From: a candidate division WOR-3 bacterium
GTDB lineage: Bacteria; Hydrothermota; Tepidihabitantia; Tepidihabitantales; Tepidihabitantaceae
Direction of reading: 5' to 3'
Length of the DNA: 33,427 bases
Assembly (NCBI GenBank): GCA_903908785.1
Contig: CAIVTL010000054.1
Location: forward strand, 1 to 33,427
Shown here: piece after piece, positions 4,505 to 33,427 of the stretch
How the letters are laid out: every line of letters starts with the position of its first letter
How positions within the stretch are numbered: the stretch's first letter is position 1
The notes under the pieces: model-generated
Told to the model about the DNA's origin: nothing
Databases searched by the model: none
What the model saw: the letters and a program-made list of their open reading frames with translations, nothing else
Program-made: the position numbers and the translations under genes

Positions 4505-4539
4505 TGGCCAAGAGACTCGGGCAGGCTGCGGACGGCGGC

Positions 4540-8522: not shown

Positions 8523-8539
8523 AGCAGGAAGCGTGCCTG
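8523..8539 (-). promoter_or_regulatory. Candidate sigma54 -24/-12 promoter for the kinase operon (AGGCACG-cttc-CTGCT on minus strand)
   Basis: On the minus strand, GG (8537-8536) and GC (8525-8524) have the 12-nt offset. The site is about 200 nt upstream of the kinase ATG and 30-80 nt downstream of the TGTNACA pair. Confidence 0.3.
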
Positions 8540-8568
8540 ACTCGGCCGCTCACAGGGTCATTTTGATT

Positions 8569-8619
8569 GTGTAACATGGAAGGCGACTCACAGTGGAGGT
8601 GTATCATCGCATGTTACAC
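8569..8619. promoter_or_regulatory. Pair of TGTNACA dyads (GTGTAACATG-N31-CATGTTACAC)
   Basis: Perfect 10-bp inverted repeat with half-site centres 42 bp apart. It has the same core heptamer as 1311-1349. Confidence 0.35.
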
Positions 8620-8852
8620 CCGGAAGTGACACTTCTGGAGTCGCGCCCGGCGGGCCTGGCGTACTGATAGAAGCGCGCACAGCCTTGGGCCGGGGAGGAG
8701 GAACGGGCGTCGGGCGCACCGGCACGCCGGTTGCATATTCGTGGCGCGCATGGAGAAACCCAGGTGGAAAGACAGCCTGCCGGACGCGCGCACAGTATCC
8801 GTGCCGACAGGGCAGGCAAAGGTGCAGGAAATCAGACAGAAAGGAAGTCAAC

Positions 8853-9260
8853 GTGCGTGAACTGATAGAGCGTGTAAGCGCAAGACGCTTGGGAACTGTC
8901 CGGCCCACGGACTTCTCGCGGAAGCTGGGGGACGAAGTTCGTCTTCGCCCGGTCGAGTCCATACACGTGGGTCGCGGCTTCATGCAGGTCCACCCTCAGA
9001 CTGCGGACCGGTTTGGGTTCGCGCCCGGGGACTCAGTGGTGTTGGACCTTGGCGGGGTCTTCTGGCCGTTCCGCGCGGAGCGTTCGGCCGAAGTCAAGCC
9101 CGGACAGGCGCGGATGAATAGCGCCGAGATGGCGTTTATGGGCATCCGCCAGGGGACGCCCCTTGTGGCCCGTCGCGTTCCGTCGCCGGCGGCATTGCCG
9201 CATAACTGGCCGGTTGAACACAATCGGCACGACTGGCTGGTCCCGACGGAGCCGGTATGA
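8853..9260 (+). CDS. Small protein with CDC48-N/VAT-N-like double-psi beta-barrel signature
   Basis: GTG at 8853 lies 5 nt after AAGGAAG. MQVHPQTADRFGFAPGDSVVLD...GQARMNSAEMAFMGIRQGTPLVARRV resembles the VAT-N pattern (xRxD...lgv.pGD.V.i ... G.iRmd...R.n.gv..Gd.v.v). It is a paralogue of the C-terminal half of 9724-10299. Confidence 0.55.
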   Translation: MRELIERVSARRLGTVRPTDFSRKLGDEVRLRPVESIHVGRGFMQVHPQTADRFGFAPGDSVVLDLGGVFWPFRAERSAEVKPGQARMNSAEMAFMGIRQGTPLVARRVPSPAALPHNWPVEHNRHDWLVPTEPV

Positions 9261-9490
9261 GCCTGAGCATGCAGTCACGAACGGCGGCACACGGGACCGC
9301 GTTGCGTCCAACCAGCATGTTCTACCAGCCCAAGGCCCGGATGCTGGTCATGGAGTTCCCCAGGCGCGGAACCTACATTTACCAGGGCGTGACGGCTCGC
9401 GCCTATGACCGGCTGAAGTGTTCCCTGCGCACGCAGGTCCGTTTTATCAAGAACCAAGACCGCCATTTCTGCGTCGTCGAGGCGCGTTGA
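9257..9490 (+). CDS. KTSC-domain-like small protein
   Basis: Its ATG overlaps the upstream TGA (ATGA). LVMEFPRRGTYIYQGVTARAYDRLKCSLRTQVRFIKNQDRHF fits the KTSC pattern (l.v.F..G..Y.Y.gV....y..l......g.f....r). Confidence 0.5.
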   Translation: MSLSMQSRTAAHGTALRPTSMFYQPKARMLVMEFPRRGTYIYQGVTARAYDRLKCSLRTQVRFIKNQDRHFCVVEAR

Positions 9491-9723
9491 CGCCCCATGA
9501 CAGTTCTGCGTCTACCTGACTGAATGCGGTTCGTCTTCCTGTCGTCATGGCAGCCCCGCCGACCGTAACTCGCAACTCGTAACTTGTAAGGTTGCGCTTC
9601 GCCCGCGCCAGGATTGGACCCGCGGTGCCGCGTCCGACCGGCTATCAGGCAGGCGCGGCCCGGCCGCTCACGCAACGCCGATACTGCCGTGCACGGCACG
9701 AAGCCTGCACTAACCTTCCTATC

Positions 9724-10299
9724 TTGGCAACACCAAAAGGAGAAGTCAGGTTTGAACTCGTGAAGCGTGACGGCAGACGCGAGAAGTACGACTCCGCCAA
9801 GCTTGCCAGGTCGCTCGCGCGGGCCGGCGTGGCTCCATACATGCTTGCCGGAATCCTGGACCTTGTCGGCCCGGGCCCGGAAGCGAACACCGATTCTCTG
9901 CGCGCGCGGGTTGAATCCGCGCTGGCGCTGAGGCAGCCGAGTGCCGCACGGCGGTACGCCTCCACGCGCAGTCTGACCACCCGCGGGTCCGAACATGCAG
10001 GGTTCGGCTGGATTTGCATGAACCCGGAGACTATGAGCCGATTGAACGTCAGGCCCGGCGACACAGTCTGGCTCAGCTATGATGGAGCAACGGCACCGTT
10101 CAGCGTTGAGAGTCTTGCGGACGTCGAGCGTGGGCATGCTTGGCTCAACGGCCGGGAAATGGCCGCGATGGGAGTCCGCGCCGGGACCAGGCTTGCCGCC
10201 TCCAGCGTCTATCAGGGCGCATCGCCTTCGCCTGAGGAGTATCTGGACCGCGGCCGCGCTTACGCGACCAGCCCCGGTGCCGTGCGGAACGGCGGGTAG
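9724..10299 (+). CDS. ATP-cone domain fused to a CDC48-N-like double-psi barrel; start uncertain (TTG 9724 or GTG 9760)
   Basis: FELVKRDGRREKYDSAKLARSLARAG... is ATP-cone-like (V.KRDG..E.fd..Ki). The C-terminal half ICMNPETMSRLNVRPGDTVWLSY...GHAWLNGREMAAMGVRAGTRLAAS parallels 8853-9260. AAGGAGA at 9737-9743 is not ideally spaced to either candidate start. Confidence 0.6.
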   Translation: MATPKGEVRFELVKRDGRREKYDSAKLARSLARAGVAPYMLAGILDLVGPGPEANTDSLRARVESALALRQPSAARRYASTRSLTTRGSEHAGFGWICMNPETMSRLNVRPGDTVWLSYDGATAPFSVESLADVERGHAWLNGREMAAMGVRAGTRLAASSVYQGASPSPEEYLDRGRAYATSPGAVRNGG

Positions 10300-10516
10300 T
10301 AGATGCGGCTCGGATTCCATCCGCAGACCGTCCGAATGGGGCGAACCGGTGCCGAACCAGACGCGGCGGCATCGGTAAAGGTGACTGACAGCAGTTCACT
10401 GCGTCCCCAAGGCAGGAAGGCCGGCCCAGCGCCTCGGGTGGGCCGCACCTGCCGGTACGACGATTCGCAGCCGACCGATTGCCGCGTGGAACCCGGACGC
10501 GGAGGAGATGACTGAC

Positions 10517-12448: not shown

Positions 12449-13522
12449 GTGACTGTGGCAAAGATAGCGCCAGGCATCAGCGGCGAGTTGTGCCGCGTCA
12501 GGACCGAGGATGGGCTGGAACTTCAGGGACTCTATGACGGGCGATGTCAGATGTCAGATGGCAGATGGCAGAAGTCAGAAGTGTCGAATCCGACCCCTGA
12601 CCCCCGACCCCTGACCCCCGACCCCTTTTGCGTAGTCCACGTTCACGGCTGGGATGGGAACTTCTATGAGAACCGGTTCGTTGACTACGCGGCGCAGGCG
12701 TGCGTGCGACGCGGTATCGGGTTTCTTACGGGCAACAACCGAGGACATGACTATATCGCGGACATCCTGAGGGACAGACGAAGTCAGAAGCTAGATGCTA
12801 GATGTCAGAAGTCAGAACTGAGGAAGCGGGCATCGGGACTGGACTATGTGCAACTGGGCGGGATGTATGAGAAGCTGGCGGAGAGCGTGGCGGACATCGG
12901 GGCGTGGGTTGACTTTGTTGTCGGGCGCGGCGCGAAGCGGGTCATCCTGCAGGGGCATAGCCATGGAGCGACAAAGGTCGTCCATTATCTCGCGACGACC
13001 AGCGACCCGCGCGTCTGCGGGTTGATTCTGCTTTCACCGTCGGACGATATGGGCTGGGTCAGAAAGCTGCTCGGCCAGCGGTTCCTGTGGGTGCTGGCGC
13101 GAGCGCGAGAGTGGGTGCGCGCGGGCAAGGGCCGACAACTGCTGCCGGAGAAGGACTTCCCCTACCCGGTCTCTGCCGCGACGTTCTTTGACTGCTACCA
13201 CAAGGGCTCGATAACCGGCAGCTTCAACATCAGCCGCACCGACCGTAAGGAGTTCCCGGAGCTTGCGTCAGTCCGCGTGCCGGTGCTGCTGGCGGTCGGC
13301 ACGGTCGAGGAGTACTACGTCGGTTCGGCGCAGGGATTCATGCAGGGCATTGCCGAGTGCCTGGAGAATTGCCCGTCGTTCACCGGCGCGGTCGTCGAGG
13401 GCGCGCCGCACAACTACCTGGGGTACGAGCGGGAGCTGGGCAAAGTGCTGGAGAAGTGGCTGACTAAGAAGTGGTCCAGTGGTCGAGTGTTCGAGTCGTC
13501 GAGTGCCGGAGGGAAGAAATGA
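12449..13522 (+). CDS. Alpha/beta-fold hydrolase with two repeat-encoded inserts
   Basis: VVHVHGWDGNFYENRF is consistent with an oxyanion region. The nucleophile elbow is GHSHG (LQGHSHGATKVV), followed by GLILLSPSDD. It has a GTG start with no SD. The inserts CQMSDGRWQKSEVSNPTPDPRPLTPDPF and SQKLDARCQKSEL are encoded by heptamer repeats. Confidence 0.75.
   Translation: MTVAKIAPGISGELCRVRTEDGLELQGLYDGRCQMSDGRWQKSEVSNPTPDPRPLTPDPFCVVHVHGWDGNFYENRFVDYAAQACVRRGIGFLTGNNRGHDYIADILRDRRSQKLDARCQKSELRKRASGLDYVQLGGMYEKLAESVADIGAWVDFVVGRGAKRVILQGHSHGATKVVHYLATTSDPRVCGLILLSPSDDMGWVRKLLGQRFLWVLARAREWVRAGKGRQLLPEKDFPYPVSAATFFDCYHKGSITGSFNISRTDRKEFPELASVRVPVLLAVGTVEEYYVGSAQGFMQGIAECLENCPSFTGAVVEGAPHNYLGYERELGKVLEKWLTKKWSSGRVFESSSAGGKK
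12546..12622. repeat. 11 in-register heptamers (GTCAGAT/GGCAGAW then CCCYGAC) inside the hydrolase CDS
   Basis: The units read gtcagat gtcagat ggcagat ggcagaa gtcagaa gtgtcga atccgac ccctgac ccccgac ccctgac ccccgac. Confidence 0.85.
12783..12817. repeat. Five heptamers (GTCAGAA/GCTAGAT) inside the hydrolase CDS
   Basis: The units are gtcagaa gctagat gctagat gtcagaa gtcagaa. A near-identical block occurs at 15824-15858. Confidence 0.85.
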
Positions 13523-15776: not shown

Positions 15777-15823
15777 GAGTTAGCGGTTAGGAGTGGAAAC
15801 CGGGGCACCGGAGGGCGGGCGAA

Positions 15824-15858
15824 GTCAGATGTCAGAAGCTAGATGCTAGAAGTCAGAA
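15824..15858. repeat. Five heptamers (GTCAGAW/GCTAGAW), intergenic
   Basis: The units are gtcagat gtcagaa gctagat gctagaa gtcagaa, the same word family as 12546 and 12783. Confidence 0.85.
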
Positions 15859-15901
15859 GTGCCGAGACGGTGGACGGAAGTTGGCGTCGGTCCCGGCCGG
15901 G

Positions 15902-18207: not shown

Positions 18208-18963
18208 CTATGCCGAGCCGTTCGTACGCGAAGAGCCGGTCTGGTCGGCCCGGCTGTGGCCGGGGTCATTGTCGGCGGACAGCGCGGTGATGCGGGCAGA
18301 CAAAGGGGCAAACACCGGAAGAGAAGAGAGACCGGAATCCGCAGCCCAGCGACTCAGCTCCTCCAGCTTGTGCTTGAGCTTGCGCTTGTGCCCGTCGTTT
18401 GCCCGATTCAGCACGCCCCACAGCTTCCGGGCGTAGAGGCGCAGGCGGAAAGCAACCACTGCGCCGGATTCGATGCCGGCTCGGGACAGCTCCTCGGCCA
18501 CGAGGTCATCAAGGCGGCGCTGCGCGTCCTGCGACCGGGCATAGGCCGCAGCCCGGCTGAGTCGCTTGCCCTCAGGTTCGGGCTTGCGTCGTGAGCGGGT
18601 GACCTTGTCGTCGTATCTTCGGACTGCGTCCCAGACACCAGGAGGCAGCTTGCCGGCGAGGCTGCGGACGCGCTTATACCCGCGCTGCTCCAGCACGGTC
18701 GGCTTAGAAGTGTAGGCCTCAAGCAGGTCGGAGATGTCCACAAAAGACGCCCGGCACGCCCGCAGATAATCGGCGACAAACCCGAGCGAAGGGTATGGCG
18801 CTCTGCCCAACTCGACCTTCCCGATGAGCTGATGGTTGCCCTTTCCCTGTCTCCCCATCAGGACTGCCAGTTCCTGTTGAGTGATGCCCTCTTTGAGCCT
18901 CAGCGCACGAAGCCGCAGTCCCATCTCTTCCGTGAACCTGAACATCTCTTTACTCCGGCTCAT
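18208..18963 (-). CDS. XRE-family HTH transcriptional regulator with a long uncharacterised C-terminal region
   Basis: The N-terminal helix-turn-helix reads LRLRALRLKEGITQQELAVLMG. The ATG at 18963 lies only a few nt downstream of a TTGACG-17-TATCAT promoter, which suggests a leaderless mRNA. Confidence 0.8.
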   Translation of the reverse strand: MSRSKEMFRFTEEMGLRLRALRLKEGITQQELAVLMGRQGKGNHQLIGKVELGRAPYPSLGFVADYLRACRASFVDISDLLEAYTSKPTVLEQRGYKRVRSLAGKLPPGVWDAVRRYDDKVTRSRRKPEPEGKRLSRAAAYARSQDAQRRLDDLVAEELSRAGIESGAVVAFRLRLYARKLWGVLNRANDGHKRKLKHKLEELSRWAADSGLSSLPVFAPLSARITALSADNDPGHSRADQTGSSRTNGSA

Positions 18964-19340
18964 TACATGCGCATGATACCAATAAGACTCATGCGCGTCA
19001 ACGGCGGCTGGAGGATAAGCCCTGACAGGAGAACGGGTTTAGGGATTCCGGGGCAGACGCAGCCCCGTTTCCGCCGCAGACCTGAGCATCTCACTGGACC
19101 GGCTCATGCCACGCGCATAATACCAATAAGACTCATGCGCGTTGACGGCGGCGGAGGGATAAGCCCCGACAGCAGCACGGGCTTAGGGATTCCGGGGCAG
19201 TTTCAGCCTCCCCTCCGCCGCAGACATGAGCACCTCACTGGACTGGCTCATGGCGCGCGTATGATATCAATAAGACTCATGCGCGTTGACTGCGACGGGA
19301 GGATAAGCGCCGATGGTAGCGCGGGCTATGGGAGTTGGGG
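18961..19340. repeat. Tandem repeat of a 144-bp unit, about 2.6 copies (unit starts 18961, 19105, 19249)
   Basis: Each unit carries the ataccaataagactcatgcgcg operator core, ggataagc and ttagggattccggggcag. Copies 2 and 3 also carry a decayed copy of the first codons of the XRE gene. Confidence 0.9.
18965..19001 (-). promoter_or_regulatory. Sigma70-type promoter (TTGACG-N17-TATCAT) overlapped by an 8-bp inverted repeat operator GCGCATGA-N12-TCATGCGC
   Basis: The minus strand reads cgccgTTGACGcgcatgagtcttattggTATCATgcgcatgtaATG. The inverted repeat lies at 18969-18976 and 18989-18996. Confidence 0.6.
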
Positions 19341-19365
19341 CGGGAATGGGTCGGTCACGCCGGGG

Positions 19366-19701
19366 GTGAACTCCGGCGTGAATCGCGCCGTGAACTGCGC
19401 TGTGAATGCGGACTTGAGTTGCGCGTTGACTTCAGCCGTGAGCCCGGCGGTGAATAGTGAACTGAAGACGTAAGTGAGTTGCGGTTTGATGTCGGGGTTG
19501 AAGTTGGGCGTGACCGGCGAACTGACATCGCGGTTGAACTCAGCCGTGACCAGCGGCTTGACCGCGCAGTTGAAGCCAGCCGTGACTTGCGTGCTCAGCC
19601 GTGATGTGAACTCGGGCGTGAGGTCCGGGTTCAGAGCCGGGTTGAGCTGCCGCGTGAAGTCCGAACTCAGTCTTGCGGTGATTGCGCAGGTGATGTCCGG
19701 A
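19366..19701. repeat. Array of 28 degenerate units in strict 12-nt phase (consensus KTGA-N8)
   Basis: Units were read by hand: gtgaactccggc gtgaatcgcgcc gtgaactgcgct gtgaatgcggac ttgagttgcgcg ttgacttcagcc ... gtgattgcgcag gtgatgtccgga. No indel breaks the phase over 336 nt. Confidence 0.85.
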
Positions 19702-19865: not shown

Positions 19866-22430
19866 TCAGGGGGCGAAGACGACGCGGGTTGTGGCCGCGC
19901 GGTCAAGGGTCTTGACCCGAACGACATAGACACCGGCGCGGGTATCGGACGCCGGTTTCCAGACGTAGCCGGATGGCGTGGCGACGAGCGCAGAGTTGGG
20001 GTCGGAGCTGGATGCGATGAACCTTCCGGCGGCGTCGTAGATGCGGGCAGAGGTGGTCGAGTGGTCAAGTGGTCCGGTGGTCAAGTGAATGAGAAGGGAG
20101 GTGCGGAAGGGGTTGGGGCGGGCGGAGATGGTGCGTGCGAAGCCCGTGGCCTTGTGTCCGTCGGCCAGCCCGACGAACGGGGAGAGCTTGCCCCATATGC
20201 GGGTCGTGTTCGTCACGCGGCCGCCGATTGAGTCTGTCCAACCATCCCAGGTCGCGAGGACACGGCCGGAGGCGTTCGAGGTCAGGGCCGGGAGCGACTC
20301 GCTACCGGTGCCCCGCATGACCGCGAACGTGTCGAGCACGGTGCCGAGCGTACTCACTCGAGCTCCGTGGATGGTCGTGCTGTCCATACCCCATGCCTGC
20401 CAGGCGACGATGTAGTCGGTACCGTCGAACGTGACTGTCGGTTCAGTGGCCGGGTCCGTTGATACGGCCAGGCCCGCTGTGTCGAGCACGGTGCCGGTAC
20501 GTGTCACGCGGGCGGCGTAGACGCCGACAGCGTCCCCCGATGTCCAGACAACCAGGTAGCTGCCTCCGCCGTAGGCAATGGCTGGTTCCCGGAGGTTGTT
20601 CTCGCCTGCTGCGATTTCGATTCCCGCGGTATCGAGCACGACCCCCGCCTGAGTGACGCGAGCACCGTAGATGTCAAAGTGCGGGAGCGTGTCCGGTCGG
20701 CGAGTATCTACCCAGGTGATGAGGTAGTCGGTGCCGTCAAATGCCACCGCCGGTTCGTACTTGTCCGGCGGCGCCACGGACACAACGAAGTTGGCGGGGT
20801 CGAGCAGATGTCCCCTTTCGTTTACGCGTGCAGCGTATATGTCGTCGCTCATGTTATTGGCCTCGTGCTGCCAGACGACTAGAAAAGCCGTTTCACAGGC
20901 AGCTACGGCCGGCTCAAACTGGAAGTCGCCACGTATCGCGACTGCAATCCCAGATGTATCGAGGACGTGTCCTGACGGGCTCACCCGCGCTGCATAGATA
21001 TCAGAGTAGTTGTTACCTTCCCGCCAGTCTTCCCATGCGACGAGATAGCAGGTACTGCAAGCGGCAACCGACGGGGCGGTCCCGCGTGAGACAGGAAAGG
21101 GCCGCGGGTCCAACAGGCCTCCCTGGGACGAGACCCGCGAGGCATATATGTCACATGTCGGCCCGCGACGATAGTCTTGCCATGCGACCAGGAAGTCGGT
21201 TCCATCAGAGGCACAGCATGGGGATGACTGCTCGTAGACGCCCGAGGAAACGAGAACCTCGGCAGTGTCGAGGACGTTTGCGTCCGGGGTCAACCTGGCG
21301 CCGAACACATCTTGACGCCATGCGCCTTCGTAGCAGTCCCAGACTACCCAGAAGTTGGTGCCGTCAAAGACGGCAGCCTGCCCCGTCAGCCCGCCGTTCA
21401 TCCGGTTGATTCGGAACCCGTCCGGGTCGAGTACGCCTCCCGATTGGTCAATGCGGCAACCACAGGCCCCTTGCGGCCCGCTGAATGCCACGAGATAGTA
21501 CGGGCTTCCGAACGTCACGGAAGCATCACCCTCGTTCTGGTCGGCCGTCGCAACCGGGATCCCGCCTGAGTCGAGCACCACGCCGGACCGAGTCACCCGT
21601 GTCGCGAAGACGTCGTACTGGGAGTTCCGGGCGCGGTCCCACGTAACAAGGAAGTAGTCGCCGCCGAATGCCACCGACTGCCCGTACGTCCTGGCAGTGT
21701 CCGCTACGATCAGGATGCCCGCAGTGTCCAGAACGTCTCCGGACGGAGTCACCCGCGCACCGTAGACGTGGACGCCGTCTTGAGTGCTCGTCCATATCAC
21801 CATGTAGTTGGAGTCACCAAATGCAATCTCCTGGGCGCACTGGTAGCCAATGGAGCGAGTTACCGCAAATCCGCTGGGGTCCAGAACGGTTCCGCTCTGG
21901 TTCAAGCGAGCGGCGTAGATGTCAGTGTTGTCCTGTTGCCAAGCCACCAGGTAGTTCGTGCCATCGAACGCGATTGACGGGTCAGCGGCGTAGGCAGAGA
22001 TCGGTGACACCTTGATCGGTGGCTCGTCAAGGACTTGGCCCGAGCGCGAGACACGTGTGCCGCAGATGGCGCCACCGGGCGCGTCCCACACGACGAAGTA
22101 GTTTGTGCCGTCGAAGGCGACTCGCGGATGTTCGTTGGTTACCAGGGGATCGGTTATGCTGAAACCGCAACTGTCCAAGAGCCGGCCCGAGTTGTCAACG
22201 CGGGCGGCGTATATGTCATAGCCGTAGTGATCCGTCCGGCCGTCCTGCCAGACGACGAGGTAGTTTGTTCCATCCCACGCCGTGACTGCCTCATACTGTC
22301 GGTAAGGAGCACGCGCGTAGACCACCTGCGAATCGAGCAGGAATGCGTCAGGGTCGGGCGGGTCGGCGGCGGCCAGCCCGGCGAGGATGAGAAGCGGCGC
22401 GGCGAGCAGGGACAGGTTCGTTTTGAGCAT
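19866..22430 (-). CDS. Exported protein with ~14 tandem ~50-aa repeats (FDGTNYLVVW...DIYGARV...G.VLD..GI.V) and T9SS C-terminal sorting domain
   Basis: ATG at 22430 follows GGAGG, and the signal peptide is MLKTNLSLLAAPLLILAGLAAA. The repeats were read directly from the translation. The C-terminus is NPFRTSLLIHL...IYDAAGR...GVYVVRV...RVVFAP. Confidence 0.85.
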   Translation of the reverse strand: MLKTNLSLLAAPLLILAGLAAADPPDPDAFLLDSQVVYARAPYRQYEAVTAWDGTNYLVVWQDGRTDHYGYDIYAARVDNSGRLLDSCGFSITDPLVTNEHPRVAFDGTNYFVVWDAPGGAICGTRVSRSGQVLDEPPIKVSPISAYAADPSIAFDGTNYLVAWQQDNTDIYAARLNQSGTVLDPSGFAVTRSIGYQCAQEIAFGDSNYMVIWTSTQDGVHVYGARVTPSGDVLDTAGILIVADTARTYGQSVAFGGDYFLVTWDRARNSQYDVFATRVTRSGVVLDSGGIPVATADQNEGDASVTFGSPYYLVAFSGPQGACGCRIDQSGGVLDPDGFRINRMNGGLTGQAAVFDGTNFWVVWDCYEGAWRQDVFGARLTPDANVLDTAEVLVSSGVYEQSSPCCASDGTDFLVAWQDYRRGPTCDIYASRVSSQGGLLDPRPFPVSRGTAPSVAACSTCYLVAWEDWREGNNYSDIYAARVSPSGHVLDTSGIAVAIRGDFQFEPAVAACETAFLVVWQHEANNMSDDIYAARVNERGHLLDPANFVVSVAPPDKYEPAVAFDGTDYLITWVDTRRPDTLPHFDIYGARVTQAGVVLDTAGIEIAAGENNLREPAIAYGGGSYLVVWTSGDAVGVYAARVTRTGTVLDTAGLAVSTDPATEPTVTFDGTDYIVAWQAWGMDSTTIHGARVSTLGTVLDTFAVMRGTGSESLPALTSNASGRVLATWDGWTDSIGGRVTNTTRIWGKLSPFVGLADGHKATGFARTISARPNPFRTSLLIHLTTGPLDHSTTSARIYDAAGRFIASSSDPNSALVATPSGYVWKPASDTRAGVYVVRVKTLDRAATTRVVFAP

Positions 22431-22505: not shown

Positions 22506-24755
22506 CTAGGGCGTGAAGACGACGCGGGCGGTTGCGGTGCGGGCGGCGGTTTGCACGCGGATAAGGTAGACGCCGGCGTGCTGACCTCGGAAGTCCAGCG
22601 CGATTTCCGATTTCGGATTCGAGATTCGGAGTTGACGGCAGAGGCGGCCTTGGGCGTCGAAGATGTGGACAGATGTGGTCGAGTGGTCAAGTGGTCCAGT
22701 GGTCAAGTGAATGAGAAGCGAGGTGCGGAAGGGGTTGGGCGATGTGCTCAGCGCGGCGCGGGGGTCGGATGGGACGTGGCTTGGTTCAGCCAGGCCGACG
22801 AACTGCCTGGTCTGGTAGAGTTCGAGGGGATATCCCGGGGTCAGGTTGCGGCCCGACAAACCGGGGTAGTCCGGCGGATAGCGCAGCGCGCGGAACGTGT
22901 TGTTCTGTTTGCCGGACGCGCCGCCGGGCACGGTGTCTCCCTGGTACAGCCGGGTCGAGTCGGTCGCGGGACTCAAGTAGTGCCAGACAATCTGGCTGTC
23001 GCGGGTCACCTCGAAGAAGGCGCCGAGGTCGCTTTCGCAGATAAGCGTGTTCCCGTTCGGGAATCGCTGCGCGCCGCCCATGGTCGCAGAGAAGAGGCTC
23101 GCCGGCGGCGTGGCGACGTAGACCCAGCATTGCGCGGCCGGCCCGAACGGGGTTCCGGGTGCGGGTCGCGGGTAGTTGCCGGCGCTGTCGCACGGGGGGA
23201 TGAATTCGTCAACCGATGAGTAGCCCCGGCCGTCGATGCCGTTGTTGAACAATAGAATGTGCCCGGCGCCCGGCAAGCCCGGCCCAATCCACTGTGCGTT
23301 GTGCTGGCCGAAGAGCTTGCGGTCCGTGGTGTCGCCGGCGCGGTAGGCGCGCGGGTTGCCCCAGCGGTAGAGCAGGTCGCCGCCCATGCCGAACCGGCCG
23401 CCGGTGTGACCGCGCGCTTCCTCGGTGGTTGTGCTGTGGTCAATGACCCAGACCTCGTTCAGGTTGTGGATGCTCAGTATTACCTGGTCGAAATCCGGGT
23501 TGTAGGCGACGGAGTTCACGTGCAGCCAGTCCGGCGCGCCGCGCAGCGGGGGCGGGCCGGTGAAGTTGATGTCCGCGAGTTCGGAGTGCTGGGCCGGGTC
23601 GCCGTAGTTGGCCTTGGTCGAGTCGTAGTCCTGGATGAGATGGTCCCAGACGTGCCACTCCCACACGATGCTGTCCGTGGCCGGGTTGACTTCGACGACG
23701 TGGTCGGGCCAGAGCTTGTTCTGGACGAGCCAGGACGGGTTGCGGCCGGCGGCGACCGCTTCGGCGCGCGTCTTGAGTTCCCATGCCACGAGCAGGACGT
23801 TGCCGTTCGGTAGCGACGCGATGTCGTGGTGCTGGCAGTGCAGGGTGCTGGAATACTGGTAGGACCATTGTAGGCTGCCGTCCCAGTCGTACCGCTCGAC
23901 CCGACCGCCGGTTCCTCCGCCGGGGAAGCTTGAGTTGCCCAGTCGCGCGCTGCGCAGCAGGCTGCCGTCTTCGAGCAGGTAGCAGGACGCGCCGGGCGGA
24001 TAGCTGCTGTGCCAAGTGCGGACGAGCCGGCCCTTGTTGTCAATCAAGTACGTGAACTTGTACGAAAGCGGGGTGAACAATGTGTAGCCGACGAAGGCGG
24101 AGCTGTCGTTGCGGAACAGGCCGAGCGTCTGCGAGTCGGCCGAGAGCTCGCGGACGAAGCCGCGGATGGAGCCGTCAAGGCTACTGAGGTCATTCCACGT
24201 CGGCACCCGCACGCCGGTCGACTCGCCGAAGTGGAGTGCATTCTCGTTGCCGCCCTGGTTGTCCGGCTCGCCCGGAGACCATTTGCGGAAGCCCATTGCC
24301 TCGTTCGTGACCCAGTGCCAGCCGCTGTCCGGTTCGTGTGAGCCGAAGTCCTGGGTGCCGCCCAGCCAGGGCCCGGCCAGCAGGCCCGTGCCGGGTCGCT
24401 CGTACCAGTAGACACCGGAGTCGACCAGGCCGAACACGAAATCGTTCTCGGCCGGCGACGTGACGGTGGCAAGGTAGCCGCCGTGTCCGAGAGCCGAGTC
24501 CCAGGCGAAATTCCAGTCGATGCCGTCGGGTGTGCTTATAGCGTGGTAGTAGTGCACACTCCCGTCAGGGTGGAACCAGGGCTCAGGCTGAGCGGCAGCC
24601 CAGCCGACGGTCAGACAGAGAAAGAGGAATGAAGAACGAAGAACGAGGAACGAGGAACGAGGAATGAGGAGTGAGGAACGAGGAGTGAAGAAGGAGGAAC
24701 GAAGGGTGAAGAACGAGGAACGAAGTAACGATGAACGAAGAACGGTTGTGCGCAT
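22506..24755 (-). CDS. C-type lectin domain + arylsulfotransferase (ASST)-like beta-propeller + T9SS C-terminal sorting domain
   Basis: The lectin region reads W..AWDSALGHGGYLATVTSPAENDFV...GPWLGG...GWHWVTNE...WSPGEPDN..GNENALHF...WNDL. ASST-like blocks include HHDI..LPNGNVLL, DWLHVNSV.YNP..DQVILS and LLYRWGNPRAY. The CTD reads NPFRTSLLIHL...IFDAQGR...GVYLIRV...RVVFTP. ATG at 24755 follows AGGAGA. Confidence 0.85.
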   Translation of the reverse strand: MRTTVLRSSLLRSSFFTLRSSFFTPRSSLLIPRSSFLVLRSSFLFLCLTVGWAAAQPEPWFHPDGSVHYYHAISTPDGIDWNFAWDSALGHGGYLATVTSPAENDFVFGLVDSGVYWYERPGTGLLAGPWLGGTQDFGSHEPDSGWHWVTNEAMGFRKWSPGEPDNQGGNENALHFGESTGVRVPTWNDLSSLDGSIRGFVRELSADSQTLGLFRNDSSAFVGYTLFTPLSYKFTYLIDNKGRLVRTWHSSYPPGASCYLLEDGSLLRSARLGNSSFPGGGTGGRVERYDWDGSLQWSYQYSSTLHCQHHDIASLPNGNVLLVAWELKTRAEAVAAGRNPSWLVQNKLWPDHVVEVNPATDSIVWEWHVWDHLIQDYDSTKANYGDPAQHSELADINFTGPPPLRGAPDWLHVNSVAYNPDFDQVILSIHNLNEVWVIDHSTTTEEARGHTGGRFGMGGDLLYRWGNPRAYRAGDTTDRKLFGQHNAQWIGPGLPGAGHILLFNNGIDGRGYSSVDEFIPPCDSAGNYPRPAPGTPFGPAAQCWVYVATPPASLFSATMGGAQRFPNGNTLICESDLGAFFEVTRDSQIVWHYLSPATDSTRLYQGDTVPGGASGKQNNTFRALRYPPDYPGLSGRNLTPGYPLELYQTRQFVGLAEPSHVPSDPRAALSTSPNPFRTSLLIHLTTGPLDHSTTSVHIFDAQGRLCRQLRISNPKSEIALDFRGQHAGVYLIRVQTAARTATARVVFTP
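24624..24728. repeat. 15 in-register heptamers GARGAAC (105 nt) encoding residues ~10-44 of the lectin/ASST protein
   Basis: The units read gaggaat gaagaac gaagaac gaggaac gaggaac gaggaat gaggagt gaggaac gaggagt gaagaag gaggaac gaagggt gaagaac gaggaac gaagtaa. The translation shows a 7-aa period (RSSFFTL RSSFFTP RSSLLIP RSSFLVL). Confidence 0.9.
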
Positions 24756-24764
24756 GTGATTCTC

Positions 24765-26156
24765 CTATTCCACTACCAGTTTCCGTGTCGCGGAGCCGCC
24801 GGCGTAGTCGAGCTTAACCAGATAGACCCCGGCGGCCAGGCCGGTAACTCGTAACTCGCAACTCGTAACCCGCAACTCGCTCAGCACCAGCTTGCCGGTG
24901 ACGTCGTAGAGGGAAAGGGAGGAGGGAGGAGAGAGGAGGGAGGAGCTGTAACTGATGGTCGTCGACGAGTGGCAGGGGTTCGGGGAAACGGTGAACGATG
25001 AACGATGAACGTTGAACGAGTGTCCGGTCAGGCCGGTCATCAGAATAAACCCCAGCGAGTCGGTTTTCACCAGCAGTACGCTGCCGCCGGCGGAGTCGGA
25101 CGTGCCGGCAACCACGTAGCCGCCGTCCGCGGTCTGCCGGACAGAAGCGGCCTGTTCCATACCGGTTCCGGGCAGCACGCTCGTCCAGACCGTGTCGGCA
25201 TTGGAGTCGAGCTTGACCAGCCAGGCCCGGGCCGAGTCGCCCCAGTCAATGGTACCGGCGATGATGTAGCCGCTGTCGCTGGTTGGCTGCATCGCTGTCG
25301 CCCTGGTTGCCGCTCCGGGAACAGCGATTTGGCGGGTCCAGAGCAGAGCGCCGACGCTGTCGGTGCGGAGTAGATAGAGTGCGTCAAGTGACTGGAGCGT
25401 GTCGATTTCGGAGCCGGCGGCAAGGAATCCGCTGTCCTGCGTCTCCGTCACTGCTTTAAGCATCGGCGCCACCGGGCCGTGGTATGTCCGCGTCCATGCT
25501 GAATCGCCGTTCGGCCGCAGGCGCGCGAGGCGCATGTAATTCGCGACATAGTCGTTGGCAATGCCGCAGAGGACGAAGCCTCCGTCGCGGGTCTGGGCCG
25601 CGCCATGCGCCCAGGAGTCGTACATCCTCGGTTCATCGTACCAGCGCGCCCATTCTTCCTGACCGTCTGCGGCCAGTTTGATGGCGCCCATGTCGAACGC
25701 GGTGTCCGGTATCCGACCGGCGACGAGGCAGCCGCCGTCGGAAGTGGGGATGATTGTCGAGACCGGCCCGCCCCAGGTTGACTGATAGTTCCAGAGCGAG
25801 TCATCCGCCGGGCCGAACCCACGGACGAAAATCCTGCCGGCGGACTCGGCCAGGACCGCATAGCCGCTGTCAGCCACGCGGCACGAGAGACCGCCGTCCG
25901 CGTCCAGGCCGAAGATGTGACGTACGGAAAGTGTGTCGCCCAGGGAGTCGGTCCGCACCAGCACGACTCCGAAACTACCGGATGCGACGTGGGTCCCGCC
26001 GCTCGTGACGTACCCGCCATCGGGGAGCTGTGCCGCGGAGCGGCCGGTATCGGCAATGTACCAGTGCCAGCGGTTCTCGAACGTAATCGTCGCCAGCGCC
26101 AGCGCGGGCAGCGCGAGCAGTATCAGCGCTCTGCCGGTTCGGCACGGGGCGCGCAT
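24765..26156 (-). CDS. Exported repeat (propeller-like) protein with T9SS C-terminal sorting domain, paralogue A
   Basis: The signal peptide is ALILLALPALALA. It has recurring DGGY..(A)G......d.wlvK.ds.G...W motifs. The CTD reads NPCHSSTTISY...LYDVTGKLV...GVYLVKL...RKLVVE. By eye it is more than 60% identical to 26198-27604. Confidence 0.8.
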   Translation of the reverse strand: MRAPCRTGRALILLALPALALATITFENRWHWYIADTGRSAAQLPDGGYVTSGGTHVASGSFGVVLVRTDSLGDTLSVRHIFGLDADGGLSCRVADSGYAVLAESAGRIFVRGFGPADDSLWNYQSTWGGPVSTIIPTSDGGCLVAGRIPDTAFDMGAIKLAADGQEEWARWYDEPRMYDSWAHGAAQTRDGGFVLCGIANDYVANYMRLARLRPNGDSAWTRTYHGPVAPMLKAVTETQDSGFLAAGSEIDTLQSLDALYLLRTDSVGALLWTRQIAVPGAATRATAMQPTSDSGYIIAGTIDWGDSARAWLVKLDSNADTVWTSVLPGTGMEQAASVRQTADGGYVVAGTSDSAGGSVLLVKTDSLGFILMTGLTGHSFNVHRSSFTVSPNPCHSSTTISYSSSLLSPPSSLSLYDVTGKLVLSELRVTSCELRVTGLAAGVYLVKLDYAGGSATRKLVVE

Positions 26157-26197: not shown

Positions 26198-27604
26198 CTA
26201 TTCAACCACCAGTTTCCGCGTCGCGGTGCCGCCGTCGCAGTCGAGCTTGAGCAGGTAGACACCGGCCGGCATTGACCGGAGGTCAAGCCGGAATGACGAC
26301 GAACGAGGAACGATGGACGATGAACGATGAACAAGGACCAGGTAGCCGGTGACGTCGTAGAGGCGGAGGGAGGAGGGAGCAGTGAGGAGGGAGGAGACCA
26401 GGACGAAGCCGTGGCAGGGGTTGGGCGTGAAGGAGAGGCGTAAGGGGCGGGGGTTGGGGGGCGAGGGTTCTTCAATGCCAATCCGGCCCAGCGAATCGGT
26501 CTTGATTGCCATCATGCGGCCACCGGAGAGGTCGCTCGAACCGGCGATAATGTACCCGCCGTCCGTCGTCTGTTCGATGTCGGCCGCGTTCTCCCGCCAC
26601 GGCCCGCCCACGACGCGGGTCCAGGTCGTGTCGCAATCGGCATCGGTCTTGACCAGCCAGGCCCGGGCCGAGTCGCCCCAGTCAATCGAGCCGGCGATCA
26701 TGTAGCCGCCGTCCCGGGTTGCGCACATCGCCGCCGCCTGGGCCGCGGCGCCGGGAGGCGCGAGGTGGCGGGTCCAGAGCGTATCGCCGGTGGAGTTGGT
26801 GCGCAACATGTAAAGGGCATTGCGGCTGCTTGAGGTGTCGAACTCGTACCCGACCGCGAGGAACCCGCCGTCCGACGTCTCCCGCACGTCACTCAGCATC
26901 GGGCCGACCGGGCCGTGGTACAACCGGGTCCAGGCCGAGTCGCCGTTCGGCCGGATTCGAGCCAGCCGCATGTTGACCGAGGTGTAGTCGTTGGACTCGC
27001 CGCAGAAAATGTAGCCGCTGTCCCGGGTCTGGGCGGCGCCATGCGCCCAGGAGTCAAACATCCGCGGCTCATCGTACCAGCGCGCCCACTCCTCGTGGCC
27101 ATCCGCGGCCAGCTTGATGGCGCCCATGTCGTACGCCGTGTCCGGAATCCGGCCGGCAAGAAGGCAGCCGCCGTCGAAGGTCGGGATGAATGCCGAGACC
27201 GGGCCGCCCCAGGTTGACTGGTAGTTCCAGAGCGAGTCACCCGCCGGGCTGAACCCGCGCACGAAGATTCTTCCGCCGGACTGGGCCAGGACCGCATAGC
27301 CGCCGCCGGTCAGCCGGCACGAGAGGCCGCCGTCCGGGTCCACGTCGAGAATCTGGCGTACCGAAGTCGTGTCTCCGGAGTCGTTGGTCCGCGCCAGCAC
27401 GACGCCGTAGCTGCCGGTAGTGACCTGCATGCCGCCGCTGATGATGTAACCGCCATCCGGGAGCTGGGCCGCGGCGCGGCCGACATCCGCGATGTACCAG
27501 TGCCACCGGCGCACAAAGTTGGGGGATGCCAGCGCCAGCACCGGGATTGCCAGGAGGAGTAAGGTCAAGGTTGAGGTTAAGGTTGAGGGTGAGGAACGGC
27601 GCAC
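26198..27604 (-). CDS. Exported repeat (propeller-like) protein with T9SS C-terminal sorting domain, paralogue B
   Basis: GTG at 27604 lies 7 nt after GGAG and 4 nt after the upstream stop. The domain plan matches 24765-26156. The N-terminal PSTLTSTLTLLLL is encoded by aaggtt-type hexamers (27555-27598). Confidence 0.8.
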   Translation of the reverse strand: MRRSSPSTLTSTLTLLLLAIPVLALASPNFVRRWHWYIADVGRAAAQLPDGGYIISGGMQVTTGSYGVVLARTNDSGDTTSVRQILDVDPDGGLSCRLTGGGYAVLAQSGGRIFVRGFSPAGDSLWNYQSTWGGPVSAFIPTFDGGCLLAGRIPDTAYDMGAIKLAADGHEEWARWYDEPRMFDSWAHGAAQTRDSGYIFCGESNDYTSVNMRLARIRPNGDSAWTRLYHGPVGPMLSDVRETSDGGFLAVGYEFDTSSSRNALYMLRTNSTGDTLWTRHLAPPGAAAQAAAMCATRDGGYMIAGSIDWGDSARAWLVKTDADCDTTWTRVVGGPWRENAADIEQTTDGGYIIAGSSDLSGGRMMAIKTDSLGRIGIEEPSPPNPRPLRLSFTPNPCHGFVLVSSLLTAPSSLRLYDVTGYLVLVHRSSSIVPRSSSFRLDLRSMPAGVYLLKLDCDGGTATRKLVVE

Positions 27605-31170: not shown

Positions 31171-31289
31171 TGGAGACGAGCATCTACAGATTCCACAGAT
31201 TACGCGGACTACGGACTCTGGACTTTGGACTATGGACCACGAACTCAGGATTTAGAGTTTGGAGTTTGGGACTTCCCGCCCCTCGCGGG
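31171..31289 (+). repeat. Composite: 25-nt word (inverted copy of 15907-15931), ten GGACTNT/GAGTTTG heptamers, then a CCCGC-loop-GCGGG hairpin (copy 3 of 3)
   Basis: catctacagattccacagattacgc is followed by ggactac ggactct ggacttt ggactat ggaccac gaactca ggattta gagtttg gagtttg ggacttc, then cccgc-ccctc-gcggg (31275-31289). Confidence 0.8.
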
Positions 31290-31295: not shown

Positions 31296-32399
31296 TCAAT
31301 TGTCGCCCAGAACCCGTCGCGTCGCGGCCGCGTGCTCGGCCAGCGTGCGGGAAAAGGTGTGCGTGCCGTCACCGTTGGCAACGAAGAAGAAATAGTCGTG
31401 TCGCTCGGGATTGAGCGCGGCCGCAAGCGCCCGACGGCCGGGATTGGAGATGGGGCCGGGCGGCAGGCCGGCGTGGAGGTAGGTGTTGTAGGGCGACTCG
31501 ATTCGCGTGTCGGCCACAGTCAGGATTCCCTTGCGTTCGGGCAGGAGACACTCGACCGTCGCGCAGGACTGGAGCGGCATGCCGCGGCGCAGGCGGTTCA
31601 TGAACACGCCGGCGATGCGGTCAAACTCCTCCGGAACCTTGGCCTCGCGCTCGACGATGGACGCCAGGATGACGGTCTGAGAAGGGGGGAGGGGCGAGGG
31701 GCGAGGGGCGAGTGACGAGTCGCGGAGTTCAGAGAAGACGGAGGAGAACTGGCGGAGCAAGCGGCGGACGACGTCGCCGGGCGGCGAGTTGGTCAGGAAC
31801 TCGTAGGTCTCCGGAAACAGGTAACCCTCGGCCGTGGGTCCGGTCACGGCGAACTCCCTGAGCAGGTTGGTGTCGGCGCAGGCGGCAAGGAAGCTGTCGG
31901 CCCGGCAGATGCCGCGTTCCGCAAGTGCCGCGGCAACTTCGTTCATCGTGAAGCCTTCAGGTATCGTGACCATCACGAGCGCGGGTTCCTCGCGGGACAG
32001 CAGTTTGAGCACGCGCCTTTCACCGATGCCGACCGGCAGGCGGTAGCGGCCCGGCCTGATGCGCGGCGCGTAGTTGTAGTACCAGGAATAGAAGAAAAAC
32101 AGGGGCTTGGAGCCGATAACCTGCCGGGCTGTGAGCGTATCGGCGAGCGCGCGGATGCTCAACTCCGGCTGGATGCTCACCTCAACGCGGCGGCCACTCG
32201 TCTTCGCCGCTTTCGGGGAACCACACGCGACAAAGGACAAAATGACAAGGAAAAAGGACAAAGTAACAAAGACAAAGGACAAAGCAAACGGGAAAGGACA
32301 AAGTGCAGAGGCCCGGTCCGTTTTGGCCTTGGTACTTTCCACTTGCTTTGTCCTTACGACTTTGTCCTTAGTACTTGACCCGAGATCTCGCGTCGTCAC
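31296..32399 (-). CDS. mltG: Endolytic murein transglycosylase MltG (YceG family)
   Basis: Motifs are GYLFPETYEF, ILASIVEREA, GVFMNRL...MPLQSCATV, SPYNTYLHAGLPPGPISNPG and FFFVANGDGTHTFS. GTG start at 32399 lies 15 nt after the ruvX stop. The N-terminal TM segment is repeat-encoded. Confidence 0.9.
   Translation of the reverse strand: MTTRDLGSSTKDKVVRTKQVESTKAKTDRASALCPFPFALSFVFVTLSFFLVILSFVACGSPKAAKTSGRRVEVSIQPELSIRALADTLTARQVIGSKPLFFFYSWYYNYAPRIRPGRYRLPVGIGERRVLKLLSREEPALVMVTIPEGFTMNEVAAALAERGICRADSFLAACADTNLLREFAVTGPTAEGYLFPETYEFLTNSPPGDVVRRLLRQFSSVFSELRDSSLAPRPSPLPPSQTVILASIVEREAKVPEEFDRIAGVFMNRLRRGMPLQSCATVECLLPERKGILTVADTRIESPYNTYLHAGLPPGPISNPGRRALAAALNPERHDYFFFVANGDGTHTFSRTLAEHAAATRRVLGDN
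32229..32366. repeat. GACAAAG heptamer block (32229-32303) and inverted CTTTGTC copies (32346-32366) inside the 5' end of mltG
   Basis: The forward block reads gacaaag gacaaaa tgacaag gaaaaag gacaaag taacaaa gacaaag gacaaag ..., followed by ctttgtc at 32346 and 32360. Confidence 0.85.
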
Positions 32400-32414: not shown

Positions 32415-32873
32415 CTAGCCCCTTCTGGCTGCGAGGAAATCCTCGAGGATGATTGTCGCGGCGATTCGGTCCACGGCCCGCTTGTGCTTCGGCGCGCCGT
32501 GGCTGATGCGCGGCTGGTGGTGCACCTTCAACTCGGGGTCGAAGTACGTGCGCTCCAGCACGTGCGCCGCGCGCACCGTGGAGAACCGCTCGTCGTGGAA
32601 CTCCACCGGCAAGCCGGCTGCCTTCTTGAGCTGTCCGGCAAAGGACCGCACCTGCACGGAGCGCTTGCTCGGTTTCCCGGACTGGCCAAGAGGGAGGCCG
32701 AAAACCACCTCATCAACCTCCTGCTCGCAGATGACCTTCAGGAGAGCCTTGAGCAGGTGCTGCTCATCCTTGTGCTCGATAGTCGGCAGACCCTGCGCGA
32801 TGGTCCTCGTAATGTCCGACACCGCGACCCCGGTCCGGCGCTTGCCAAAGTCAATGCAGAGGATTCTACCCAT
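32415..32873 (-). CDS. ruvX: YqgF/RuvX family putative Holliday junction resolvase / pre-16S rRNA nuclease
   Basis: Motifs are MGRILCIDFGKRRTGVAVSD, VVFGLPL and FHDERFSTV. The ruvX-mltG gene order is widely conserved. Confidence 0.9.
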   Translation of the reverse strand: MGRILCIDFGKRRTGVAVSDITRTIAQGLPTIEHKDEQHLLKALLKVICEQEVDEVVFGLPLGQSGKPSKRSVQVRSFAGQLKKAAGLPVEFHDERFSTVRAAHVLERTYFDPELKVHHQPRISHGAPKHKRAVDRIAATIILEDFLAARRG

Positions 32874-33018
32874 AGTATCTAAGTGTAGGATACGGCCCGC
32901 GCACTGTCCAGCAGATAGGGTCTGGAGAGGACCGCGGCGCGGCCCGCAACACCCATCGTTGCGACCTGCGTCCCGGCCCGCTTGTACCTGCCCCGCTGCG
33001 GTCTGCGCTGCGCGTGCG

Positions 33019-33318
33019 GAAGGCTCCCGCCAAACTCCTCGCGAAGCTCTCTGCGAAGCTCATTCGTAAGCTCCTGTCGAAGCTCTCTACATTGCTCATT
33101 CGGAAGCTCATTACGAAGCTCCCTTCGAAGCACCTTTCGATGCGTCTTTCGTCGCTTCCTTCGTCGCACATTGCGAAGCTCCTTTCGTCGCACATCACGT
33201 TGCTCATGTCGAAGCTCCTTTGGAAACTCACGACGAAGCTCCCTTGGAAGCTCACAAGGAAGCTCCTTTCGATGCTCTCTTCGATGCTGCTTCGGTTGCT
33301 CCTTCTGATGCTGCCCAG
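33019..33318. repeat. Array of 25 degenerate units in strict 12-nt phase (consensus GAAGCTCNNNNC)
   Basis: Units were read by hand: gaagctctctgc gaagctcattcg taagctcctgtc gaagctctctac ... gaagctcctttc gatgctctcttc gatgctgcttcg gttgctccttct. No phase break occurs over 300 nt. Confidence 0.85.
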
Positions 33319-33322
33319 AGGG

Positions 33323-33427
33323 TGACCTCTACCCTTGATTCTCCCCGCTTGCTTCCGCTCCGAACCCGCCGATAATACTGACGTTATGACCATTTTGTCC
33401 GGTCCCGCCCAAGGCGTCTTCTTTCAA
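33323..33427. repeat. Right copy of the window-edge element (partner of 1-103)
   Basis: See the feature at 1-103. It has the same orientation and runs to the last base of the window. Confidence 0.7.

Follow-up and report, generated by a model that had tools for sequence, protein, structure and literature searches.

The window considered here is a 33,427-nt stretch of DNA from a candidate division WOR-3 bacterium (contig CAIVTL010000054.1 of assembly GCA_903908785.1), which encodes six cargo proteins ending in predicted C-terminal sorting domains (CTDs) of a type IX secretion system (T9SS). Parts of several of these domains are encoded by tandem arrays of 7-nt or 8-nt words (Table 1), and the array sites correspond to the three least conserved segments of the CTD, namely the linker preceding strand β1, the β2-β3 loop, and the β4-β5 hairpin. 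The arrays probably stem from a mutational process that produces heptamer repeats throughout the lineage and on whose products purifying selection acts, with the three variable CTD segments acting as permissive sinks.

Sorting Domains and Their Predicted Fold

The C-termini of the six cargo proteins are assigned to the T9SS type A sorting domains on the basis of profile matches and, for the 463-aa protein, of a comparison of its modeled fold with solved structures. All six pass the TIGR04183 cutoff of 23 bits (463-aa protein 42.2, 1125-aa protein 38.1, 468-aa protein 37.1, 749-aa protein 35.3, 854-aa protein 26.0, oxidase 24.5), and four pass PF18962, the 463-aa protein with 37.1 bits. An earlier reading of this DNA, made from the letters and their open reading frames (ORFs) and referred to here as the sequence-only reading, had already taken these C-termini for T9SS CTDs. 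No T9SS machinery gene (SprA/Sov, PorV, PorU and others) was found in the window.

The 463-aa protein has more than 5,000 homologues, the named ones of which belong to candidate division WOR-3, and it is identical on contigs of three ENA assemblies. A family alignment of 117 sequences served as the basis for its AlphaFold2 (AF2) model and for all conservation values. In the full-length model, with a mean predicted local distance difference test score (pLDDT) of 90, a hydrophobic N-terminal helix (residues 7-20) and a β-propeller are followed by a disordered linker (375-384, pLDDT <50) and a 7-stranded C-terminal sandwich composed of β1 (388-392), β2 (398-403), β3 (413-417), β4 (423-428), β5 (432-436), β6 (443-451), and β7 (454-462). 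A fold search with the full-length model matched only the passenger propeller (CylK-like), so that a CTD-only model was needed for comparison with solved CTDs; in this model (pLDDT 81) the strands are unchanged. Its top Foldseek matches in the PDB are mirolase (8qb1_A; TM-score 0.76, root-mean-square deviation 2.4), the translocon-bound NucA CTD (8glk_D; TM-score 0.73/0.82), and the PorU CTD (6za2). Residues that are invariant or nearly so in the alignment include P392, N393, P394, D418, G421, G443, V444, Y445, T457, and K459; the same holds for PNP, YDxxG, and GVY as motifs and for the Lys close to the C-terminus.

Arrays Within the Sorting Domains

Tandem Repeats Finder (TRF) was run over the whole window, where it reports 18 rows of period 7, and the region 24700-25200 was additionally read by eye. 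A strict period-7 scan returned seven arrays, as opposed to 0.0 in 30 third-order Markov shuffles of the window, which excludes chance. Within the six cargo proteins, eight of the nine period-7 or period-8 arrays lie in a CTD or its linker, one lies in a signal peptide and none in a passenger domain. The CTD arrays comprise 4-5 units with 82-91% matches (TRF), and in the 463-aa protein they account for 35 of the 86 CTD residues (about 40%). As the unit of 7 nt is translated, all three frames of the word are used and a 7-residue peptide repeat results; reading frames are open through every array, and all observed copies are in frame.

The arrays listed in the sequence-only reading were recovered by TRF with coordinates within 1-10 nt and with matching peptides, and its description of the oxidase and 1125-aa CTDs as ordinary holds, since both are free of arrays. 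Its heptamers at 22600-22640 are present and weak (TRF scores 2.7 copies, about 4-5 imperfect units being discernible by eye), and its list lacks the arrays at 24620-24744, 32229-32303, 31683-31712, and 12543-12817.

Table 1. Repeat arrays of the window, preceded by the sorting domain of the 463-aa protein.
Feature	Position	Strand	Location and product	Evidence
T9SS type A CTD and preceding linker	24765-25025	-	463-aa β-propeller cargo protein (ORF 24765-26156)	TIGR04183, PF18962
Heptamer GTAACTC x5.1 (mRNA sense GAGTTAC/GAGTTGC)	24844-24879	-	463-aa CTD, aa 426-438, SELRVTSCELRVT	TRF
Heptamer AGGGAGG x4.3	24916-24945	-	463-aa CTD, aa 404-414, SSSLLSPPSSL	TRF
Heptamer AACGATG x4.7	24987-25019	-	463-aa linker/CTD, aa 380-390, SFNVHRSSFTV	TRF
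Heptamer ACGATGA x5.3	26296-26337	-	Paralogue CTD, VLVHRSSSIVPRSSS, β4 and β4-β5 turn	TRF, alignment
Heptamer GGAGGGA x4.6	26365-26396	-	Paralogue CTD, VSSLLTAPSSLR, β2-β3 loop	TRF
Octamer GTGGTCAA x4.4	20053-20087	-	854-aa CTD, HLTTGPLDHSTT, last β2 residue and β2-β3 loop	TRF
Octamer GTGGTCAA x4.4	22675-22709	-	CTD of 749-aa arylsulfotransferase-like protein, HLTTGPLDHSTT	TRF
Weak heptamer CGATTTC x2.7	22601-22619	-	749-aa CTD, NPKSEIA, β4-β5 turn	TRF (score 31)
Heptamer GAACGAG x17.7, 75% matched	24620-24744	-	749-aa signal-peptide n-region, aa 4-46, LRSSFFT repeats	TRF
Heptamer GACAAAG x11	32229-32303	-	N-terminal transmembrane helix of MltG/YceG	TRF
G-rich heptamer AGGGGCG x4.3	31683-31712	-	Inside MltG (linker), LAPRPSPLPP	TRF
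Heptamers GATGTCA x5.3, GACCCCT x5.0, GAAGTCA x5.4	12543-12817	+	α/β-hydrolase, no evident signal peptide	TRF
Octamer AGTGGTCG x4.5	13470-13505	+	Junction of hydrolase ORF end and next ORF start	TRF
Heptamer CGTAACT x3.7	9564-9589		Intergenic; canonical word and T/C variants as in 24844 array, flanks dissimilar	TRF
Heptamer GAAGTCA x5.7	15821-15860		Intergenic	TRF
Heptamers CGGACTA x5.9 and TTTGGAG x2.7	31205-31269		Intergenic, upstream of 1125-aa gene promoter region	TRF

In the AF2 model of the 463-aa protein, the array at residues 380-390 covers the disordered passenger-CTD linker and the first three residues of β1, the array at 404-414 the β2-β3 loop and the first two residues of β3, and the array at 426-438 the last three residues of β4, the turn, all of β5 and two residues of the β5-β6 loop. 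The sequence-only reading had placed the arrays in specific loops of the domain; the three segments are indeed well defined and 404-414 is a loop, whereas 426-438 includes strand residues on both sides of its turn. Across 40 non-identical CTDs of the lineage, array-encoded residues make up 20% of the β2-β3 loop and 16-23% of β4, turn and β5, as opposed to 0% of the NP motif, 0% of the DxxG turn and <2% of β6 and β7. Among 153 CTDs, likewise, no array falls on the NP motif or the DxxG turn, and β6/β7 contain <3% array residues. The motifs that define the fold (PNP, YDxxG, GVY and the near-C-terminal TxK) are thus almost free of array-encoded residues. Majority-residue frequencies in the family alignment are 0.49-0.57 at the array positions and 0.71 both in the rest of the CTD and in the propeller. 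This placement fits published structural work: the cryo-EM structures of the substrate-bound translocon indicate that the conserved CTD motifs set the fold, while the side that meets SprA and PorV shows little conservation and is held by a plastic pocket, and the β4-β5 loop adopts two conformers (PMC10994853).

The same segments are affected in the other array-bearing cargo proteins. The paralogue array at 26365 is orthologous in position to the one at 24916, which is common to the paralogue and to the related locus L092 (loci are designated by L and a number), and array-free homologues are 6 nt longer at this site. The paralogue array at 26296 belongs to the word family of the 24987 array at another CTD position, and the octamer array of the 749-aa protein, which by alignment takes up the β2-β3 loop as in the 854-aa CTD, is also found in the L098 CTD. 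CTD segments with arrays have the same length as those lacking them or deviate from it only slightly, which suggests that the length of the β-sandwich is kept.

Exchange between sorting domains was also observed. A near-identical tract of ~90 nt, reaching from PNPF to IYDA and including the octamer array, joins the 854-aa and 749-aa CTDs, the remainder of both domains having diverged (window 19866-20160 and 22506-22770; L098 11140-11404). P0009 is an orthologue of the propeller family with a CTD of the 749 type, and CTD cassettes thus move among cargo genes.

Distribution in the Lineage and Beyond

A census of 188 kb of non-redundant lineage DNA contains 91 heptamer arrays, each classed as intergenic, CTD, N-terminal 50 aa or other coding. 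Intergenic DNA holds 39 arrays against 13.7 expected (2.85x) and CTDs hold 17 against 4.5 (3.8x), whereas the N-terminal 50 aa are neutral in this respect (10 against 10.0, 1.0x) and other coding DNA is depleted (25 against 62.8, 0.40x). Expressed as density, this corresponds to 1.8 arrays per kb in CTDs vs. 1.4 in intergenic DNA. All loci of the census were reached through a single protein family, and several of the CTD arrays are shared through descent or gene conversion, so that nominal p-values exaggerate how many of the events were independent.

TRF was further applied to 101 loci comprising relatives of the window and unrelated loci; a scan of metagenome contigs returned only 9 loci. Period-7 arrays number 3.5-14.5 per 10 kb in the window and its relatives and 0-2 in most unrelated loci. 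The excess of heptamers is thus specific to the lineage, in line with the genome-wide repeat process proposed earlier, and orthologous arrays are present in JGI, ENA, and NCBI assemblies.

The unrelated control set consists of 77 loci from other phyla (1.1 Mb), obtained by a scan of genome contigs with the family alignment, whose overly general peptide pattern led mostly to distant phyla. Among the tandem repeats of this set, period 7 leads in frequency with 44 arrays of 3 or more copies; of these 44, nine lie in a CTD or linker as opposed to 1.2 expected. These nine are found at five loci (L037 2300-14025, L018 834-930, L044 9619-9819, L016 2006-2037, and L053 141-165), and the lineages concerned are an uncultured bacterium (GC 0.51), Bacteroidales, Bacteroidia, and Ignavibacteriaceae. 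Five L037 paralogues, for instance, contain AGCTGCA and AATTCTC, and L018 has CAATCAC x4.6; the CTD arrays again reside in the pre-β1 linker and the β2-β3 loop. In the 65 unrelated loci with GC <55%, CTDs carry 0.33, other coding DNA 0.009 and intergenic DNA 0.27 arrays per kb, which places CTDs ~37x above other coding DNA. Paralogy lowers the count of independent events in this set, as with the four L037 arrays. For heptamer arrays, CTD-coding DNA behaves like non-coding DNA in several lineages of the Fibrobacterota-Chlorobiota-Bacteroidota (FCB) superphylum.

Arrays Outside the Sorting Domains

The sequence-only reading had linked the arrays to surface-exposed or cleaved parts of secreted proteins. 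This proved too narrow, as a hydrolase loop and both the membrane anchor and the linker of MltG are array-encoded as well. The anchor array of MltG is kept, with differing copy number, in L092, L087/L085, and L003. At the 5' end of this gene, forward copies of GGACAAAG (encoding the cytoplasmic KDKVVRTKQ) are followed ~60 nt later by the tandem reverse complement CTTTGTCC (encoding the transmembrane helix), an inverted arrangement seen in four genomes (window 32229-32380, L092 961-1200, L087 964-1150, L003 3294-3480). In the mRNA, the inverted words could fold into a hairpin close to the ORF's 5' end.

In the hydrolase, the third array (12780) is inserted in the stretch from the HG motif to the GHSHG nucleophile, and the heptamer-encoded insert at the matching site of the L102 hydrolase is 51 aa longer. 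The public call of this L102 orthologue (18511-19668) comprises 207 aa and starts right after the insert, while tblastn reveals a homologous open frame from about 19668. Repeat arrays thus seem to mislead start-codon calling, the L102 hydrolase having been called 150 residues short.

It had also been claimed that intergenic DNA shares the words of the CTD arrays, with 9566-9590 and 13470-13506 as instances. The array at 9564-9589 is such a case. For the octamer at 13470-13505, one base off the CTD octamer word, an intergenic position is improbable, since the end of the hydrolase ORF and the start of the next ORF overlap there.

Origin of the Arrays

According to the explanation favored here, the lineage would generate short tandem arrays of 7 nt, and fewer of 8 and 6 nt, throughout its genome. 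The arrays may arise through local slipped-strand expansion of proto-repeats, and misaligned or templated copying may turn neighboring sequence periodic. Purifying selection would then clear them from constrained coding DNA, and they would persist in intergenic DNA, signal-peptide n-regions, the membrane anchor, linkers, surface loops, and the three CTD segments because the exact sequence matters little there. The arrays themselves would be neutral.

Turnover between relatives speaks for this explanation. The L092 orthologue of the 749-aa protein starts with MRTTVLRSSLLVLCLIVGWAGAQPE and contains 3-4 proto-units, and the window copy has gained 96 nt in frame (32 aa) of the identical word. Upstream of the 1125-aa gene, the words differ between the window and L092 and L098 is free of arrays, the downstream promoter-like sequence being conserved. 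In the β4-β5 hairpin, ELRVTSCELRVT equals in length the non-repeat QTLSGAARSALPVS of the L083 homologue. Finally, RISNPKSEIA of the window is opposed to RIPNPGAAIA in L098, with 11 substitutions in 24 nt, no indel, identical flanks and a raised 7-nt periodicity in the window.

Several observations weigh against this explanation. CTD arrays are slightly denser than intergenic arrays in the lineage and in the 65 unrelated loci alike, and the hairpin peptide 'SSFGLRxSSFRLDLRS', together with the 7-nt 'NNTTCGN' period of its DNA, is kept in homologues that are only ~50% identical. At least this array-derived segment is therefore maintained rather than freely drifting. The preference for period 7 is likewise left unaccounted for. 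A further difficulty lies in the words themselves. The vocabulary comprises 62 canonical words among 90 arrays, and some of these recur at unrelated loci (AATCCAG x6, AACTCGT x3, AAGTCAG x3, in ~250 kb of lineage DNA sampled), which, given ~1,170 canonical heptamer classes, is far above chance. TAACTCG/CAACTCG variants occur at both 9564 and 24844, the 12780 hydrolase and 15821 intergenic arrays share GAAGTCA, GATGTCA, GAAGCTA, and GATGCTA, and GA[AT]G[TC/CT]A words are found at 12543, 12780, and 15821, the flanks being dissimilar in each case. Purely local slippage does not predict the same words and variant sets in places lacking flank homology, and the recurrence hints at inter-locus copying, a sequence-specific bias, or selection on words. 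L090 contains AATCCAG five times, and words related to it (TTCTGNN) are present in L092, L101, and L102. The word family GAATCCA/TTCTGGT/TTCTGAT dominates the intergenic arrays of several relatives (L090 744-4331, L092 2233, L101 4352, L102 15908-19377) and is not prominent in the window, which suggests that genomes have their own favored words.

Some of these points speak for an adaptive use, in which arrays would be favored in CTD-coding DNA, where they might quickly produce a new translocon- or PorV-facing surface or a new linker at the PorU site, might offer microhomology for CTD cassette exchange, or might contain words acting as nucleic-acid signals (protein-binding or RNA-structure elements). 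Besides the CTD density at or above the intergenic level (1.8 vs. 1.4 and 0.33 vs. 0.27 per kb), the conserved hairpin and the words common to different loci, this proposal can draw on the recurrence of arrays at the same three CTD sites in the distant L037, L018, L044, L016, and L053, on the exchange of CTD cassettes (P0009 and the ~90-nt tract) and on the forward and reverse-complement word copies flanking the start of the MltG membrane anchor. However, arrays are equally found in non-secreted contexts, array positions are simply the least conserved columns, near-identical strains do not vary, the vocabulary is broad, and the recurrence is inflated by paralogy, as in L037. Adaptive use is therefore considered unlikely, albeit the most serious of the alternatives. 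The same low standing is given to its broader form, in which the DNA of T9SS sorting domains would be a favored, perhaps even selected, target of 7-nt repeats across the FCB superphylum, with arrays repeatedly overwriting the three CTD segments, creating de novo hairpin and loop sequence that may later become fixed and conserved, as with the 'SSFGLRxSSFRLDLRS' hairpin, and promoting short-patch cassette exchange. The sequence-only reading had left it at 'tolerated, or even used': the weakly constrained segments agree with tolerance, whereas the lack of strain variation and a CTD density close to that of non-coding DNA lend no direct support to use.

Phase variation, whereby the gain or loss of one unit would shift the frame in a CTD or signal peptide and switch secretion or attachment of the cargo on or off, is suggested by a unit length that is no multiple of three and by the location of arrays in genes for secreted and surface proteins. 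Heptanucleotide phase variation is reportedly known for the Haemophilus HMW adhesins. On the other hand, no indel or mismatch was found within arrays in ~67 kb of alignments between contigs of at least 99.9% identity from different samples, a comparison of consensus assemblies in which minority variants could stay hidden. Furthermore, every observed copy is in frame, and the arrays consist of few units (4-5) that match imperfectly (75-95%), which suppresses slippage. Such switching appears most improbable.

Even less credit is due to an origin at the protein level, where selection would have favored a duplicated 7-residue β-strand motif in the CTD hairpin and no DNA repeat process would be involved. 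Many homologues do conserve the 7-residue period 'SSFGLRA SSFRLDL RS', but the DNA period is 7 nt rather than 21, so that successive units are read in three frames, a pattern which protein selection would not create, and these words also turn up between genes and in unrelated proteins. An artifact of assembly or sequencing, conceivable for a contig from a short-read metagenome assembly, is the least probable reading, as the identical sequence was assembled independently in the three ENA data sets, orthologous arrays exist in JGI, ENA, and NCBI assemblies, and frames stay open through every array.

Further candidates were tried and rejected. A diversity-generating retroelement with an intergenic template and a C-terminal variable region does not match sharing that is limited to the 26-36 nt of an array, nor differences that are T/C instead of adenine-specific; no match to a reverse transcriptase was found among the ORFs and annotated genes inspected, which did not include every ORF. 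G-quadruplexes do not explain the arrays, as G-tracts are rich only at 31683-31712 and weakly so at 24916-24945, with most words lacking them. A dispersed mobile element is at odds with the dissimilar flanks of same-word arrays.

Other Features of the Window and Its Relatives

Repeats of other periods were observed apart from the cargo genes. An intergenic 144-nt tandem repeat (18955-19327, x2.6, 83% matches) lies directly upstream of the gene for an HTH_31 regulator (18208-18945, minus strand), and each unit holds a CATGCGCG...ATACCAATAAGACTCATGCGCG motif, which may represent iterated operator sites. A 175-aa ORF (32866-33393) consists almost entirely of the degenerate 12-nt repeat CGAAGCTCCTTT in ~21 copies (arrays 33023-33314), encoding xSFx tetrapeptides such as ERSF, VSFQ, and GSFV; it is a putative gene, as an ORF on the opposite strand scores similarly. 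The region 3514-4540 contains no confident gene, with arrays of hexamers and 24-mers (CTCAAC-type, 3775-3832; AACCTT, 3901-3923) and a heptamer/14-mer at 3638-3667, and 8400-10500 holds only weak ORFs besides the 9564 array and again no confident gene. Rfam and ARAGORN scans of the window found no structured RNA and no tRNA. In a more distant relative, a long contig carries two cargo genes whose passenger and CTD lie on separate short ORFs (L103 3780-5457 and 7714-9838), which could be due to real frameshifts or to errors of long-read assembly. In L098 (17353-21404), a gene for a Cas12b (C2c1)-type nuclease accompanied by Cas4/Cas1 and Cas2 is located ~6 kb from the cargo cluster and is unrelated to the arrays.

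Implications and Comparison with Known Systems

The T9SS CTDs of this lineage can be regarded as a natural mutagenesis experiment in which up to 40% of a sorting domain is repeat-encoded while motifs and predicted fold are retained. The pre-β1 linker, the β2-β3 loop, and the β4-β5 hairpin are thus likely dispensable for recognition, which agrees with the cryo-EM finding of translocon contact on a poorly conserved surface. Heptanucleotide-repeat enrichment is extended to a WOR-3-like lineage, and non-triplet repeats are seen to be translated and retained, once as a family-wide β-hairpin. No paper on heptamer repeats of T9SS CTDs or of WOR-3 came up in full-text literature searches. The cross-lineage result, with CTDs ~37x above other coding DNA and at an intergenic-like density, is simple, quantitative and checkable on complete genomes. 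Should CTD DNA turn out to be a selected substrate, the arrays would constitute a natural route for the diversification of a secretion signal and, at the same time, a linker-scanning map showing which parts the T9SS translocon ignores.

Lineage-specific heptanucleotide repeats with a non-coding bias are represented in cyanobacteria by the short tandemly repeated repetitive (STRR) sequences. Xanthomonas (GGGAATC) and Nostoc (GGGGA(C/T)T) have comparable lineage-enriched repeats with a non-coding bias (PMC4692102), as do Beggiatoaceae, Cyanobacteria, and Bacteroidetes with TAACTGA (PMC4679880). Like the STRR, GGGNATC, and TAACTGA repeats, the arrays described here are tandem 7-nt units, usually in 2-6 copies and occasionally many more, which are dispersed and lineage-specific. 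They also share with these known heptanucleotide simple sequence repeats (SSRs) an excess in non-coding DNA and an under-representation in ordinary coding DNA, the CTDs (3.8x) being excepted. In contrast to them, the host is WOR-3-like, no single word appears to dominate in the ~250 kb sampled, most words are not G-rich and hence not of the quadruplex type, and a substantial fraction is translated, in T9SS CTDs, a signal peptide, and a membrane anchor. The SSR contingency loci of Haemophilus and Neisseria similarly feature non-triplet units inside genes for surface or secreted proteins. However, the tracts of the present arrays are short and imperfect and show no copy-number polymorphism in near-identical strains, and arrays are no less common in intergenic DNA or in a protein without evident signal peptide.

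The sorting domains, in turn, resemble the known T9SS type A CTDs (8qb1, 8glk, 8glj) in their C-terminal position on signal-peptide proteins, in scores above the cutoffs of the hidden Markov models and, for the 463-aa protein, in a predicted 7-stranded sandwich. They differ from them in that up to ~40% of the domain derives from non-triplet repeats and in that their host lies outside the Bacteroidota.

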